Assembly (NCBI RefSeq): GCF_003463065.1 | Contig: NZ_QSCM01000012.1 | Location: 3,954-67,953 of the forward strand | From: Blautia sp. OF03-15BH | GTDB taxonomy: Bacteria; Bacillota; Clostridia; Lachnospirales; Lachnospiraceae | DNA: 64,000 bases | Reading direction: 5' to 3' | Shown: in pieces, positions 47,410 to 54,086 of the stretch | How positions within the stretch are numbered: the stretch's first letter is position 1 | Layout: every line of letters starts with the position of its first letter | Position numbers and translations under genes: made by a program | The notes under the pieces: model-generated | What the model saw: the letters and a program-made list of their open reading frames with translations, nothing else | What the model was told of the DNA's origin: nothing | Databases searched by the model: none

Positions 47410-47553
47410 GTAACTGTTCAGAACCACCTCCAAAATGCTGCGCATTTCGTCGGTGTGGCGTATCCGCCAAATAGATTTCCACGTAAAAGTGTTCATTCAT
47501 GCAAGCATGATTCACACTTTTGCATGAAAATCTGCTTGGCTCTGAACAGTTAC
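47410..47553. mobile_element. MITE copy A (144 bp, 16-bp TIRs GTAACTGTTCAGARCC, 8-bp TSD ATTTTTTT)
   Basis: Near-identical inverted copy at 53943..54086; non-coding; embedded A-run/hairpin/T-run; provides the last 13 codons and stop of the araC-type gene. Confidence 0.75.
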
Positions 47554-48438
47554 ATTTTTTTGAGATTCCGAGCGGGCCATGATGGATGCCGTATACTCGG
47601 AAGGTGTCATTCCCGTAATTTTCTTGAACTGACGGGAAAAATAATGAATGGAGGAATAGCCCAGGAACTCGGAAATCTGGGTGAAATTCTGATTTTTCTC
47701 CCGGATCAGTTCCTTGGCATATTCCACTTTCATCTTGGTGAAAAAGTCGATCACTCCGCAGTTATGCTGCTCCCGGAAAATCTTCTGCAGCTGGGAACGC
47801 CCGATCAGGTTTTCCCGGCAGATATCTTCGATGGTCACATAACCGCAGATATGTGCTTTCAGGTAATCCATGATCTGGATATAAGCTGCGGATCCGCCTC
47901 CGCCCGGAGCCCAGATCTCTTCCGCCGGTTTTACCGGATTGGGAAGGTTTCTCCGTATCATACTGAGGAGCAGAAGCTCCAGATACAGCCGGATCAGCTG
48001 CTCTGAGCCAAAGGGAGCAGCTTTCTTTTTCTCCATCTTTTTCAGATAGGGATCATCCAGAGGAGATTCGATACAGCGCCGTGCTTCCGAGATCATCTGA
48101 CCTAAAAGTCCTCTTTCGTACTCGCTGACTTCCAGGATACGACCTTCGAAAAACTTCATTGCCTGAGAGGAGCAGGCAAAGGAAACCACCACCACATTGG
48201 GGGCACAGGTTCCTGTTGCCGCCAGGTTGTGAAATTCATTAGGCTTATGGAAGATCACCTGGCCTGCCTTCAGCACATGATCCAGAACCTTGATCTCTCC
48301 CTTGTCCACACACTGGAGTTCCCAGAAATCATGGGTTTCTCCCGGAAACTCAAAGTTTTTCATATATTCAAAATAGTGTATCGTATAAATTTTTCTGACT
48401 GTGATCTCGTCTTTCAGAACGATGCTTTCGTATTCCAT
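47512..48438 (-). CDS. AraC family transcriptional regulator (cupin + HTH) with MITE-derived C-terminus
   Basis: 308 aa; C-terminal AraC HTH; TTGACA-N18-TATGAT promoter upstream; last 13 aa (VTVQSQADFHAKV) encoded by MITE copy A. Confidence 0.8.
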   Translation of the reverse strand: MEYESIVLKDEITVRKIYTIHYFEYMKNFEFPGETHDFWELQCVDKGEIKVLDHVLKAGQVIFHKPNEFHNLAATGTCAPNVVVVSFACSSQAMKFFEGRILEVSEYERGLLGQMISEARRCIESPLDDPYLKKMEKKKAAPFGSEQLIRLYLELLLLSMIRRNLPNPVKPAEEIWAPGGGGSAAYIQIMDYLKAHICGYVTIEDICRENLIGRSQLQKIFREQHNCGVIDFFTKMKVEYAKELIREKNQNFTQISEFLGYSSIHYFSRQFKKITGMTPSEYTASIMARSESQKNVTVQSQADFHAKV

Positions 48439-48564
48439 ATCTTCATGCCTGCCTTTACTTTCTTAGAACGGTATTCTTCGTCTTCTCCACTTATCATACC
48501 TGTTTTTTTTTCGGTCTGTCAAGTGGGGATTCCTTTCCGCCGTCCGGTCAGACAAAAGAAAGCA

Positions 48565-50463
48565 TCAGATGGTTCCCGTACCCATATTTCCGGCAGTTAC
48601 GATGTTGCACCAGTTGTTCATATTGAAAGGCTTCTGCAGTCCTTCCGGAGCACTGGGCTTGTAGGGAAGACGTTCTTCCAGAAGCTCCGGGATCTCTGTG
48701 ATCTCACCGTCAAGGTATGCCAGGATACGCTTCTGTGCGCTTACCAGTCTTGCATGAAGACCGCCCTGACGGATATCAATCGTCTCATAACCATTGGGCT
48801 TGCACTCATGGAACCAGATCTTCTCACGGAAATCGTGATACTGCTCCAGTTCTTCCAGGCAGACGGGGATCTGCTCTTCGGCAATGCTGGTCAGCCAGTC
48901 TCTGTCGTCCTCCAGATAAGCTCTGCGGATATCCATACCGATGCCGCCCTTCACTGCAAGGAATTCTGCCAGGGAACGGTAGCAGGCAAAGAGCGCTTTG
49001 GAAACGGTCACACGCTCCTCCACTGCCCGGAGTTCTTTTGCCAGCTTGCCGTAATGGCCGTAGAGATCATACCCCTCGTACTGACGGTCGAAAAGTCCCA
49101 GCAGCGGATCCTGATAAAACAGATGCTTGGATGGAGTAACTGCAGCAATATTCAGCGGGTCACAACCCGGCAGGCAGTCCATTTTGGTGAGAAGCATCCA
49201 CTCTTCCAGGGAAGCTTCCTGGAAAAGATGAAGCTTCTCATCAATGGCAGCATCTTCCGGCTCCTCCGCAAAGCCTTCCTCTGCAAAAAGGATCAGTGGA
49301 AGCAGACCTGCTGCAAAGGGAGTCTCGGTGCCGTCATCCATCCAGAAAGTCATAAACGCATTGCGGACTTTCTGCTGTTTCATAACGCGCATGGCGATCC
49401 TTGTGCTGTCAAAGGCTTTTCCATAGTTGGGGATCAGACCGTTCCAGGTCCAGCCGCCGCCTGCGAAATAAACTTTATTGGAAAGTTTTTTGTGAAGGCT
49501 CAGCATTCTCTCATAGGTCTTCGGATCGTGGTTGTAATAATCCCAGTAAACCATCGTCAGGTTATCACCCGGTTTTTCTTCCTCCGGCCACTCATACTCT
49601 TCCGGAACGCCGTAATAAGAACCGTCCTCTGAAGCCAGGTTGAAGAACATATCACTCCACATCATGGGCTCCAGACCGTATTTCGCACAGAGTTCCTCGA
49701 CCTTTGCCAGATGACGCTTCATAATGGAAAGGCGGTTTGTGAAGCCATGCTTTCTCAGATATTCACCAAGACCCAGACCGTGTGCTTCATCCATACCCAG
49801 ATGTACTTTCTTTGTGCGGACGCACTCAGAGAAGTTTTTCAGCATAGCTTCGATGAGTTCATAGGTCTTTTCCTCCTCCGGAAGAAGGTTGTCCCGGTTG
49901 TCCTGCAGGCCATTGCTTTCCGGCCAGCGCAGGAAAGTGCTCAAATGTGCCAGTGTCTGGATACAGGGAACCAGATAAATACCGAAAATTTCGCCGTAAG
50001 CATCGCACTCTTTCAGCTCCTCTTTTGTAAATCTGCCGCGGAAAGCGCCGAAGTAGGGATACTCCGGAAGCTCATAGGTATCTTCTGTATAAAGGAAGAG
50101 CTCGTTCATGCCCAGAAGAGCCATGGTACGGATCATCCGTTTCAGCATATCCGGTGTGGGAACACCGTTTCTGGAACAGTCCGGCATAGCGCCCAGGCAG
50201 TCTGTATAAACCGTCTCCTCTTTCACAAAATCCGCATCCTCCAGATGCTGGAAGAGATAGCCGAGACCGCGGAAAAAATGAGCCTTCTCTTTGCAGGAGA
50301 TGGTCACATCCAGACCCTTTTTCTCAATTTTTAATTTATTTTCTTCTGTAAATACCGGTGTGATGGAAATTCCGCCCTCGCCATATACATGTCCACGTTC
50401 TTCCAGCAGGATCTCGAGACCTTTTTTCAGTGTTTCCTGCTCTTTTGTCAATACAAAATTCAT
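48565..50463 (-). CDS. Glycoside hydrolase family 20 (beta-N-acetylhexosaminidase / lacto-N-biosidase-like), intracellular
   Basis: 632 aa; H-x-G-x-D-E catalytic motif (HLGMDEA) and GH20 barrel pattern; no signal peptide; AAGGAGG RBS. Confidence 0.7.
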   Translation of the reverse strand: MNFVLTKEQETLKKGLEILLEERGHVYGEGGISITPVFTEENKLKIEKKGLDVTISCKEKAHFFRGLGYLFQHLEDADFVKEETVYTDCLGAMPDCSRNGVPTPDMLKRMIRTMALLGMNELFLYTEDTYELPEYPYFGAFRGRFTKEELKECDAYGEIFGIYLVPCIQTLAHLSTFLRWPESNGLQDNRDNLLPEEEKTYELIEAMLKNFSECVRTKKVHLGMDEAHGLGLGEYLRKHGFTNRLSIMKRHLAKVEELCAKYGLEPMMWSDMFFNLASEDGSYYGVPEEYEWPEEEKPGDNLTMVYWDYYNHDPKTYERMLSLHKKLSNKVYFAGGGWTWNGLIPNYGKAFDSTRIAMRVMKQQKVRNAFMTFWMDDGTETPFAAGLLPLILFAEEGFAEEPEDAAIDEKLHLFQEASLEEWMLLTKMDCLPGCDPLNIAAVTPSKHLFYQDPLLGLFDRQYEGYDLYGHYGKLAKELRAVEERVTVSKALFACYRSLAEFLAVKGGIGMDIRRAYLEDDRDWLTSIAEEQIPVCLEELEQYHDFREKIWFHECKPNGYETIDIRQGGLHARLVSAQKRILAYLDGEITEIPELLEERLPYKPSAPEGLQKPFNMNNWCNIVTAGNMGTGTI

Positions 50464-50628
50464 AAATTTCCTCCTTGTATCAGTTCTGTACTTGTGACTT
50501 TAGTATAAACGTATTCCACAGGAAAAGCTATAGGACAATCAGCTCTTCTTTTTGCTTTTTTTGCACAAACGGCCGTCTTGTCAAAACGGGGTTTACGCCG
50601 CCGCTTTTTCCGTTTATAATATTCCCGG

Positions 50629-52797: not shown

Positions 52798-53841
52798 ATG
52801 AAAAAAGTAATCTTAACCGGAGACCGTCCCACCGGCCGCCTTCATGTAGGCCATTATGTGGGTTCTCTTTCTGAACGTGTAAAACTCCAGAACTCCGGTC
52901 AGTACGATGAGATCTACATTATGATCGCAGATGCCCAGGCACTCACTGACAACGCAGAGCATCCGGAAAAAGTCCGGCAGAATATCATCCAGGTCGCTCT
53001 GGATTATCTGGCCTGCGGCATTGATCCTGATAAATCCACGATCTTTATCCAGTCCATGATCCCCGAGCTCACCGAGCTCACATTCTATTACATGAACCTG
53101 GTGACGGTATCCCGTGTACAGAGAAACCCGACCGTAAAGGCAGAGATCCTGATGCGTAATTTTGAAGCCAGCATTCCGGTCGGCTTCTTCTGCTATCCCA
53201 TCAGCCAGGCTGCAGATATCACGGCTTTCGGCGCTACCCATGTACCGGTAGGAGAAGACCAGCTGCCCATGCTGGAGCAGTGTAAGGAGATTGTTCACAA
53301 GTTCAACACCGTATACGGTGAGACTCTGACCGATCCGCAGATTGTCCTTCCTTCCAACAAGGCCTGCCTGCGTCTGCCCGGTATCGACGGCAAAGCAAAA
53401 ATGAGCAAATCTCTTGGAAACTGCATCTATCTTTCCGATGAAGCAGATGACGTAAAGAAGAAAGTTATGTCCATGTTCACCGACCCGAATCATCTCCGCG
53501 TGGAGGATCCGGGAAAGGTAGACGGCAACCCGGTATTTATCTATCTGGAAGCCTTCTCCCGTCCAGAACACTTCGAAGAGTTCCTGCCGGATTACAAGAA
53601 TCTGGAAGAACTGGAGGATCATTACAGAAGAGGTGGTCTGGGTGATGTGAAAGTAAAGAAATTCCTGAACAACGTCATGCAGGCAGAGCTGGCTCCGATC
53701 CGCGAGCGCAGAAAAGCATGGGAAGCAAGGATTCCCGATATCTACGACATCCTGAAGGCCGGAAGCGCTGTTGCTGAAAAGAAAGCAGCAGAAACCATGA
53801 CGGCTGTAAAGAAAGCCATGCAGATCGATTATTTTGGCTGA
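52798..53841 (+). CDS. trpS: Tryptophan--tRNA ligase
   Basis: 347 aa; HVGH ([11 protein letters not shown]) and KMSKS motifs. Confidence 0.9.
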
Positions 53842-53849
53842 CTTTTCCT

Positions 53850-53898
53850 AAAAAAACACCCGCCATCCGTTTTTACACGGTTGCCGGGTGTCTTTTTT
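53850..53898. terminator. Bidirectional terminator after trpS
   Basis: A7-ACACCCGCC...GCCGGGTGT-T6. Confidence 0.65.
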
Positions 53899-53942
53899 AT
53901 TCTGTTTCGCTCTCTTCCGTTGTCAGAAGCTGGCCCTCGTCC

Positions 53943-54086
53943 TGTTTTCTTTTCGATTTTTTGTAACTGTTCAGAGCCAAGCAGATTTTCATGCAAAAGT
54001 GTGAATCATGCTTGCATGAATGAACACTTTTACATGGAAATCTATTCGGCGGATACGCCACACCGACGAAATGCGCAGCATTTTGG
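53943..54086. mobile_element. MITE copy B (inverted relative to copy A; 8-bp TSD GATTTTTT)
   Basis: About 98% identical to the reverse complement of 47410..47553; between trpS terminator and stop of the binding-protein gene. Confidence 0.75.

Follow-up and report, generated by a model that had tools for sequence, protein, structure and literature searches.

Two copies of a 144-bp non-coding element, A and B, lie 6.4 kb apart in a 64,000-nt stretch of Blautia sp. OF03-15BH (contig NZ_QSCM01000012.1, GCF_003463065.1, positions 3,954 to 67,953; hereafter the window, in whose own coordinates all positions are given), the proteins of which are identical to RefSeq proteins of this member of the Lachnospiraceae. 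The copies are very probably MITEs (miniature inverted-repeat transposable elements), non-autonomous and bearing the ends of a single-open-reading-frame (ORF) insertion sequence (IS) of the IS66 family (ISBst12 group) abundant in gut and rumen Clostridia. Both insertions are still polymorphic between strains of the same species, and each has changed the C-terminus of the protein encoded by the gene it entered. The copies and their flanks are as follows.

47410..47553, plus strand: MITE copy A, 144 bp, with terminal inverted repeats (TIRs) at 47410-47425 and 47538-47553; 155 bits on covariance model R1; occupied in 9/10 contigs, empty in L086.
53963..54106, minus strand: the 144-bp MITE copy B, its TIRs spanning 53963-53978 and 54091-54106; 152 bits on R1; occupied in 7/10 contigs, empty in L092, L094 and L095.
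47402..47409, no strand: target-site duplication of copy A, left, ATTTTTTT.
47554..47561, no strand: target-site duplication of copy A, right, ATTTTTTT.
53955..53962, no strand: target-site duplication of copy B, first, GATTTTTT; single in empty alleles.
54107..54114, no strand: target-site duplication of copy B, second, GATTTTTT.

Copies A and B are mutually inverted and identical at 142 of 144 positions (98.6%), with mismatches at element positions 60 and 73. The initial annotation had reported such an inverted pair of about 98% identity, which is correct, but its coordinates for copy B (53943-54086) were 20 bp off. The element ends in 16-bp TIRs, GTAACTGTTCAGARCC (left end GTAACTGTTCAGAACC, right end GGCTCTGAACAGTTAC), which are invariant or almost so across 26-29 aligned copies. 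When up to three mismatches are allowed, the 16-mer occurs six times in the window against 0.57 expected, a count reached by 0/100 shuffles. There is no ORF of the element's own in the 144 bp; any ORF that crosses it is either the end of a neighbouring gene or runs antisense to a real one. The TIRs and 8-bp direct repeats, as well as the lack of coding capacity, had been proposed from the sequence beforehand; they are borne out by direct reading, by the excess of TIR matches over shuffles and by the single 8-mer at empty sites. The covariance model of the element (R1) was built on 26 copies.

The comparison of strains is what establishes these copies as insertions. Site occupancy was scored in contigs chosen for encoding NTP-transferase and TrpS proteins exactly identical to those of the window, and empty sites, which the initial annotation had proposed to look for in related strains, were found for both copies. 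At site A nine contigs are occupied and one (L086) is empty, reading CTCAAAAAAAT directly followed by ACAGAAAG with one 8-mer only (on the gene strand, a single copy of AAAAAAAT). At site B seven contigs are occupied, and the three empty ones (L092, L094, L095) read CTTTTC GATTTTTT TATATAC, likewise with one 8-mer only. These exact empty sites, found in further strains of this species, prove the MITE call, and every testable feature of a MITE is found in the element.

Ten contigs cover both sites; seven carry both copies (A+B+), three carry copy A without copy B (A+B-), and 10/10 run collinear with the window; an A- allele is known as well, from L086. Because each copy has its own empty site, and because A+B- contigs and an A- allele occur, A and B are independent insertions. 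Their closeness and near identity might alternatively point to local duplication or recombination, that is, to a segmental inverted repeat rather than transposition. Each copy, however, has a different 8-bp duplication and its own exact empty site, haplotypes with A and without B exist, and the same element stands at unrelated sites in many genomes; the empty sites refute this explanation, to which we give practically no weight. Inversion of the 6.4-kb segment between A and B was seen in none of the seven contigs with both copies, a small sample, and joint movement of the segment as a composite transposon was seen in none of the ten contigs covering both sites. The proposed role of the pair as a substrate for inversion or composite mobilisation is thus hypothetical, given collinear contigs and independent insertions, although rare inversions may occur.

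Copy A lies at the junction between an araC gene and the genes for an NTP-transferase (NTase) and a NahK-like kinase.

47512..48438, minus strand: AraC-family regulator gene, 308 aa, the last 13 codons and stop of which (47512-47553) are element sequence; the protein is RGX99463.1.
46452..47381, minus strand: NTP-transferase gene (PF00483), directly downstream of copy A, with its start codon 28 nt from the element end.

The AraC ORF extends 42 nt into copy A, reading through the TIR in the frame GTA ACT GTT CAG (VTVQ) and ending in the element-encoded tail VTVQSQADFHAKV and a stop codon. AraC alleles at empty sites are 300 aa long and end SQKN-TERRG before the stop, and a more divergent orthologue ends SKKKTDRRV, so that copy A entered five codons before the native araC stop. 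The earlier claims that copy A supplies the last 13 codons and the stop of this gene, and that the native C-terminus was thereby replaced, are both confirmed, the latter by orthologues lacking the element. In the native allele the araC TAA stands 2 nt before the NTase ATG (GGATAAAGATG). Copy A shifts the araC stop to ~130 nt upstream of the NTase start and places a strongly folded element between the two, while the NTase's own Shine-Dalgarno sequence is kept; the 28 nt previously given as the distance to the NTase ribosome-binding site is in fact the distance to its start codon. Pfam HTH_18 ends at residue 283/308 of AraC, and the junction with the element tail falls at 295/296.

Copy A-occupied is the commoner allele at araC/NTase-nahK, the exact 308-aa AraC protein being present on 71 public contigs versus 7, 21 and 2 for the 300-aa forms. 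The 90%-identity protein cluster that holds the AraC alleles (P0001-P0015) also holds NTP-transferase sequences (P0003, P0005, P0007 and others), a database clustering oddity; its member counts do not equal AraC allele counts unless the sequences are checked. At another locus (L104 2720-4135, a Eubacterium sp. metagenome-assembled genome) a deleted IS copy is fused in frame, via the TIR, to the C-terminal helix-turn-helix part of another AraC-family gene. That a second AraC-type regulator is interrupted by the same element family is probably coincidence.

Copy B had been placed in the intergenic space between the trpS terminator and the stop of a binding-protein gene. It sits instead within the ancestral coding sequence of that gene, the present stop of which comes from the TIR.

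54103..55152, minus strand: sugar (galactose-type) ABC substrate-binding protein gene, truncated, 349 aa; the protein is RGX99467.1, named in the source as galactose ABC transporter substrate-binding protein.
53897..53954, minus strand: former 3' coding end of the binding-protein gene, orphaned and no longer translated; 18 codons (KRKQDEGQLLTTEESETE), then the TAA at 53899-53897.

The stop codon of the binding protein (54105-54103) is the TAA of G-TAA-C within the copy B TIR, and the orphaned tail lies between copy B and the terminator common to trpS and the binding-protein gene. Alleles at empty sites encode 367 aa; they continue for 18 further codons, an acidic tail (KRKQDEGQLLTTEESE, then K or T, then E), up to a stop immediately next to the terminator that the gene has in common with trpS. 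Peripla_BP_4 ends at residue 310/367. The 349-aa and 367-aa forms are each found on tens of public contigs. Both junctions, in AraC and in the binding protein, thus lie beyond the Pfam domains, which fits with tolerance of both alleles; it is probably because the changes lie outside these domains that both alleles are at intermediate frequency.

Evidence on the parent of the element comes from searching the TIR 16-mer across one genome per species. This gave at least 119 loci, nearly all in Lachnospiraceae or other gut/rumen Clostridia; a few are chance matches within a conserved housekeeping gene, probably that of ribosomal protein L3. Among these loci are three long elements with the same TIRs: one of 1793 bp, which takes up a whole contig of Petrocella sp. 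(L140), one of 1812 bp in Clostridium sp. OF03-18AA with the target-site duplication ATTTAAGT (L166), and an internally deleted IS copy of 1092 bp (L104). A 1813-bp relative (P0087) with the same ends stands at eight further places (L216-L223), and its target-site duplications are 8 bp where the assembly is consistent (GAAACCTT, AAACTTTT). The full-length ISs have a single ORF of 481-484 aa, no tnpA/tnpB, and ~330 bp of non-coding sequence at the left end. This ORF matches PF03050 DDE_Tnp_IS66 (E 1e-45; 154-157 bits, cut-off 23.1 bits) plus DUF6444. Although the L140 and L166 transposases share no more than 59% identity, the 16-bp ends of the two elements are identical. The transposase family is large, with >7000 database clusters at E <= 1e-30, mostly on ~1.8-2-kb contigs. 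A member of the ISBst12 group, ISDge4 of Deinococcus geothermalis, is experimentally active; it carries one transposase gene and has the TIR GTAACTGCTCAGCA and a direct repeat of 8 bp (PMC12898284).

Judged by these sequence matches, the parent family is IS66 (ISBst12 group), not IS6. The initial annotation had loosely suggested an IS6-type parent, from the 8-bp target duplication, which IS6/IS26 elements have in common with ours, and from the ACTGTT core of the TIR, which may also occur in the IS26 end. Yet every full-length element found with the exact TIRs encodes an IS66-family transposase; these proteins score 258-275 bits on NCBIfam NF033517 transpos_IS66 (cut-off 180) versus 28-32 bits on NF033587 transpos_IS6 (cut-off 125), and the TIR starts GTAA, closely resembling that of ISDge4. 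Derivation from, and movement by, an IS6/IS26-type element has next to no probability in our view. The search for further copies and for a parent IS with a transposase, which had been recommended along with that suggestion, thus returned ~30 more copies and full-length IS66-family elements with the same TIRs.

The left ends of the full-length ISs also contain 3-4 DnaA-box-like motifs (TTATCCACA, <=1 mismatch; ~0.1 expected by shuffling) at conserved positions ~93, 133 and 234 (L140 1-340; L166 3230-2891, reverse strand; L216 1162-1500). Their conservation even at 59% transposase identity suggests a host-factor (DnaA) input to this IS clade.

The ~30 further copies of the MITE are 140-145 bp long and 70-98% identical to copy A, and were found in genomes and in gut viral contigs. 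Its hosts include Blautia, Bariatricus, Coprococcus, Mediterraneibacter, Acetatifactor, Faecalimonas and other Lachnospiraceae, with at least five copies at loci of Lachnospiraceae bacterium MGYG-HGUT-00137. Shorter TIR-bounded minis of 48-81 bp are also present. In a set of 41 short TIR-bounded elements the 8-bp duplication is perfect in 20 and has one mismatch in 10, and the duplicated targets are 85% A+T. A survey of 28 family copies (L004-L215 plus the window) showed no orientation or gene-end bias, 25 gene heads and 20 gene tails facing the element. About half of the 28 copies stand upstream of a predicted start codon, as defined by a crude longest-ORF rule, at a distance of 19-50 bp; the left end faces the gene in nine of them and the right end in seven. 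Typically a gene tail lies on one side of such a copy and the head of the following gene on the other, a placement probably due to a preference for the A/T-rich sequence immediately before ribosome-binding sites.

The plasmid database had no match to the element, and matches in the phage database were to unannotated human-faecal phage contigs only. Family copies occur in gut viral contigs (L004, L005, L038, L040, L031/L045, L058) and in MT837934.1 and four other phage records, one of these copies being ~97% identical to the window copy. Phages or prophages could be carriers of the element between hosts. In Clostridia this TIR stands at the ends of other repeat types as well (L101, L157, L159, L163, L170, L178, L189, L192, L199, L202, L205, L206 and other loci). 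Among them are tiny TIR-TIR palindromes, 28-37 bp long (e.g. GTAACTGTTCAGAACCATGAACAGTTAC, GTAACTGTTCAGAACCCCCCGGGTTCTGAACAGTTAC), and a second repeat family, in which it continues as GTTCTAAGCCCATGAAAATTCGCCTTCGGCGAAGGGCTTAGA.

Two older sequences in the window resemble the element.

37225..37348, minus strand: degenerate family copy in the hpf-feoA spacer; 33 bits, E ~1e-6 (26-copy covariance model).
50629..50644, plus strand: TIR-like 16-mer GTAACAGTTCAGAACA (2 mismatches), which borders an old, decayed relative within the ABC-F leader; 50629-50766 scores 18.9 bits, E 0.005.

The copy at 37 kb, already recognised as degenerate in the initial annotation, is placed in the family by the covariance model. 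It lies in the opposite orientation, its first hairpin is deleted, its right TIR is interrupted and it has no recognisable target duplication. No empty site was found for it; because it is present in 15/15 contigs, it is taken to be old. The match at 50629 had been listed as a solo TIR. A TIR-like sequence is indeed there, present in all strains seen, but probably not as a solo TIR; it forms the left edge of what looks like an old decayed relative (50629-50766), the family membership of which is uncertain at a marginal 18.9 bits. The surrounding ABC-F leader (50629-50913, upstream of 50975) is itself strain-variable over ~280 bp; the window and L094 have the long form and L091 one of ~177 bp, while most strains lack the stretch. 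It contains two nested ~51-bp units with the palindrome GCGCTGAGTCCCGGTGGGACTCGTTTAGCGC, plus a duplicated GTAGACCTGTGGCCTGTTGTTTTGAACGT. The short allele retains the TIR-like GTAACAGTTCAGAGCG and so looks like a deletion derivative.

The interior of the element is strongly folded. The TIRs pair as a closing stem around three hairpins: the first one, a small one (GGCG-TATC-CGCC) that is invariant, and a long one of ~28 bp with the invariant cap ATGCAAGCAT. Folds of single copies have z scores of -9 to -12 relative to shuffles. In the alignment of 26 copies pairing is kept in 96.7% of cells, changes on both sides are seen in 15 pairs, and the covariation score is 0.228, versus 0.084 in shuffles (reached by 0/500) and 0.02-0.06 with the partners slid. 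In the long hairpin and in the first hairpin pairing is kept via compensatory changes across subfamilies. The pairing of the hairpins is clearly maintained. The most likely reason would be descent from the parent IS's subterminal hairpin, or a need of the same kind; that hairpin may serve transposase or host-factor recognition, or shield against read-through.

A regulatory role is the main alternative reason for such a fold. The A-run/hairpin/T-run had been read earlier as a bidirectional terminator, and on this reading the element would be, in addition to its MITE origin, a co-opted regulatory module acting as a (bidirectional) terminator or insulator, or as a stabiliser of mRNA 3' ends, a role for which selection would account for both the conserved fold and the placement at gene ends. 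The compensatory changes in the hairpins would agree with this, as would the A- and T-runs beside the long hairpin in all subfamilies, the location of both window copies at gene 3' ends and the presence in the parent IS of a hairpin about as far from the left end. Nevertheless, a consensus scan for terminators called none in copy A or B, and the core stem of the window subfamily is weak (-6.2 / -6.6 kcal/mol, with internal loops), followed by UUUU and then G or A. The 28 surveyed copies show no preference for gene tails, and many stand upstream of starts, where strong termination would be polar and where 19-50 bp leave no room for a new promoter; a promoter search found none within or at the ends of either copy. 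The allele with copy A between araC and NTase-nahK is, moreover, the commoner one. Efficient termination by the element is unlikely from its sequence, and the terminator claim is not supported; a co-opted regulatory module is improbable overall. Slightly more doubtful still is the idea that the three-hairpin interior is a mobile structured module, as RNA or single-stranded DNA, which would alter mRNA 3' ends, stability or translational coupling in gut Lachnospiraceae wherever it lands in A/T runs at gene tails or a short way upstream of starts. If it were true, presence or absence of the MITE, as seen at araC/NTase-nahK, would be a common origin of strain-level regulatory variation in the human gut. 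In a weaker form of this idea, orphan 'small RNA' motifs of Clostridia such as Clostridiales-1 might descend from mobile structured modules.

Clostridiales-1 (RF01699) also bears on the element more directly, since copy A matches the whole RF01699 model at 36.6 bits (E 9e-7, in a 271-nt search), and the window contains a genuine member.

32711-32880, minus strand: Clostridiales-1 RNA (RF01699), 127 bits; bona fide member.

In both sequences the long hairpin has the apex UGCUUGCA (G-CUUG-C loop) and A/U-run flanks, and the order of parts is the same, with a closing stem, the long hairpin and two more hairpins. On this reading the element would be, or would carry, a structured small RNA related to Clostridiales-1. 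However, 36.6 bits is below the gathering score of 48 (at gathering thresholds no Rfam family matches the element), and the MITE model in turn scores only 12.3 bits (E 0.27) at the Clostridiales-1 locus. Other MITE subfamilies have no RF01699 match and instead hit unrelated microRNA-precursor models at 23-36 bits; because these match too, any long hairpin appears to score in this range in such a small search space. The window's own RF01699 member has neither TIR nor target duplication. The match of copy A was therefore rejected as a generic long-hairpin effect, by the reciprocal model and the subfamily controls, and a structured small RNA related to Clostridiales-1 is a very improbable identity for the element.

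The Clostridiales-1 RNA of the window follows immediately on the stop codon of a release-factor-2-like gene, with a Band_7/SPFH gene 57 nt downstream. A look-up of the release-factor-2-like protein, with the ORF as defined here, gave no record. The eight public contigs that contain the Band_7/SPFH gene are all (8/8) broken within the RNA, a pattern suggesting repetition or variability of this RNA in metagenomes. Blautia sp. HCP3S3_H10_2 has another true member (L126 1259-1417), at a distance of 1.6 kb from a MITE copy.

Several points weigh against the origin of copies A and B as MITEs with IS66-family ends. No transposase gene lies within the 64-kb window, and we infer a mobilising IS in the same cell. 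The MITE interior shares just the 16-bp TIR with the full-length ISs, plus a weak A/T-rich similarity (z 4-7) between the arm of its long hairpin and, in one IS lineage, the subterminal hairpin at the left end; a direct origin of the MITE by deletion from such an IS is hypothetical. Among the 119 TIR-matching genome loci listed none has an IS with MITE-like subterminal sequence, and tblastn with the transposases returned only ISs with a different subterminal sequence. The compensatory changes in the fold are partly shared within subfamilies, and the independent events are fewer than cell counts suggest. Evidence for movement of the 144-bp element comes, finally, from sequence comparison. IS66-type MITEs nevertheless remain by far the best description of A and B. 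A transposase supplied by another IS, whether in the same genome, on a plasmid or in a phage, would bind the GTAACTGTTCAGARCC ends and insert the element into A/T-rich 8-bp targets, which would be duplicated in the process. Both insertions in the window lie in A/T runs at extreme 3' gene ends.

Two further features of the window were noted. At 44630-45332, between the nahK-like kinase and pantothenate-kinase genes, lies a 659-bp cassette, on either side of which the intergenic terminator hairpin stands as a direct duplication of 44 nt (AAAGCGCCGCAGAATGGATCTGATCTCCGTTCTGCGGC...). The cassette contains a skipping-rope RNA (RF02924, 44687-44757, minus strand, 51 bits) and a 125-aa ORF (44813..45190, minus strand). 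It is present in the window, L078, L083 and L085 and absent from L077 and others, which have a single hairpin there. An FMN riboswitch (RF00050, 116 bits) at 4579-4697 on the minus strand is unrelated to the MITE pair.

The element is a new MITE family of a well-known kind, and reveals no new mechanism. We found no earlier description of it; in a text search of the literature the TIR string did not appear as an IS or MITE end (it appeared in primers only), and searches for papers on MITEs in Lachnospiraceae or Blautia yielded only a different 162-nt element without target duplications. The two copies provide a population-verified example of MITEs rewriting or truncating protein C-termini and breaking a tight operon stop/start junction in a Blautia that is prevalent in the human gut. 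Since people carry both alleles, natural strains of the A+/A- and B+/B- types are available. The family is a widespread, apparently undescribed Lachnospiraceae repeat tied to the poorly studied single-ORF (ISBst12) branch of IS66, and the IS66 link supplies conserved ends, a target preference and a candidate transposase. Repeats of this kind break metagenome assemblies and create spurious protein variants; the 308-aa AraC and the 349-aa binding protein are RefSeq entries.

The closest known systems are ISs of the ISBst12 group (ISBst12; ISDge4, PMC12898284), the TIRs of which start GTAACTG like that of the present element (GTAACTGCTCAGCA in ISDge4, GTAACTGTTCAGAA/G here). The 8-bp duplication is also in common, and the full-length relatives at L140, L166 and L216-L223 have one DDE_Tnp_IS66 ORF and lack tnpA/tnpB, as in that group. 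Unlike these ISs, the window element has no ORF, and its 112-bp interior is no simple internal deletion of any recovered full-length IS. IS6/IS26 elements are alike in the 8-bp target duplication, whereas their ends and transposase family differ.

Among MITEs, Correia/NEMIS of Neisseria, RUP of Streptococcus pneumoniae and ERIC/IRU are classical examples which, like the present element, are small, non-coding, bounded by TIRs, target-duplicating, multi-copy and strongly self-complementary. The same combination is seen in MITEPsy1 (PMC3189936). As with classical MITEs, our element inserts at gene ends, is read into by flanking ORFs and varies in presence between strains. It differs from them in its parent, which is of the IS66/ISBst12 type rather than IS630, IS5 or others, in its 8-bp A/T-rich duplication rather than TA or CTAG, and in its hosts, which are Lachnospiraceae and other gut Clostridia.

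A 162-nt DUF6783 element of Blautia/Ruminococcus (SPLASH preprint, 10.1101/2024.01.18.576133) is similarly a small inverted-repeat element of the same bacterial group, for which forms of the same gene with and without the insertion are known, often at stop codons. That element, however, is 162 nt long, has ORFs on both strands and inserts at TT/AG (between the second T and the A) without target duplication, whereas the present one is 144 bp, non-coding and flanked by 8-bp duplications, with its transposase family identified. The Clostridiales-1 RNA (RF01699; Weinberg et al. 2010, PMC2864571) resembles it in having a UGCUUGCA-capped long hairpin, two further hairpins and a closing stem, but the score is sub-gathering, the resemblance is confined to one MITE subfamily, and Clostridiales-1 lacks TIRs and target duplications.

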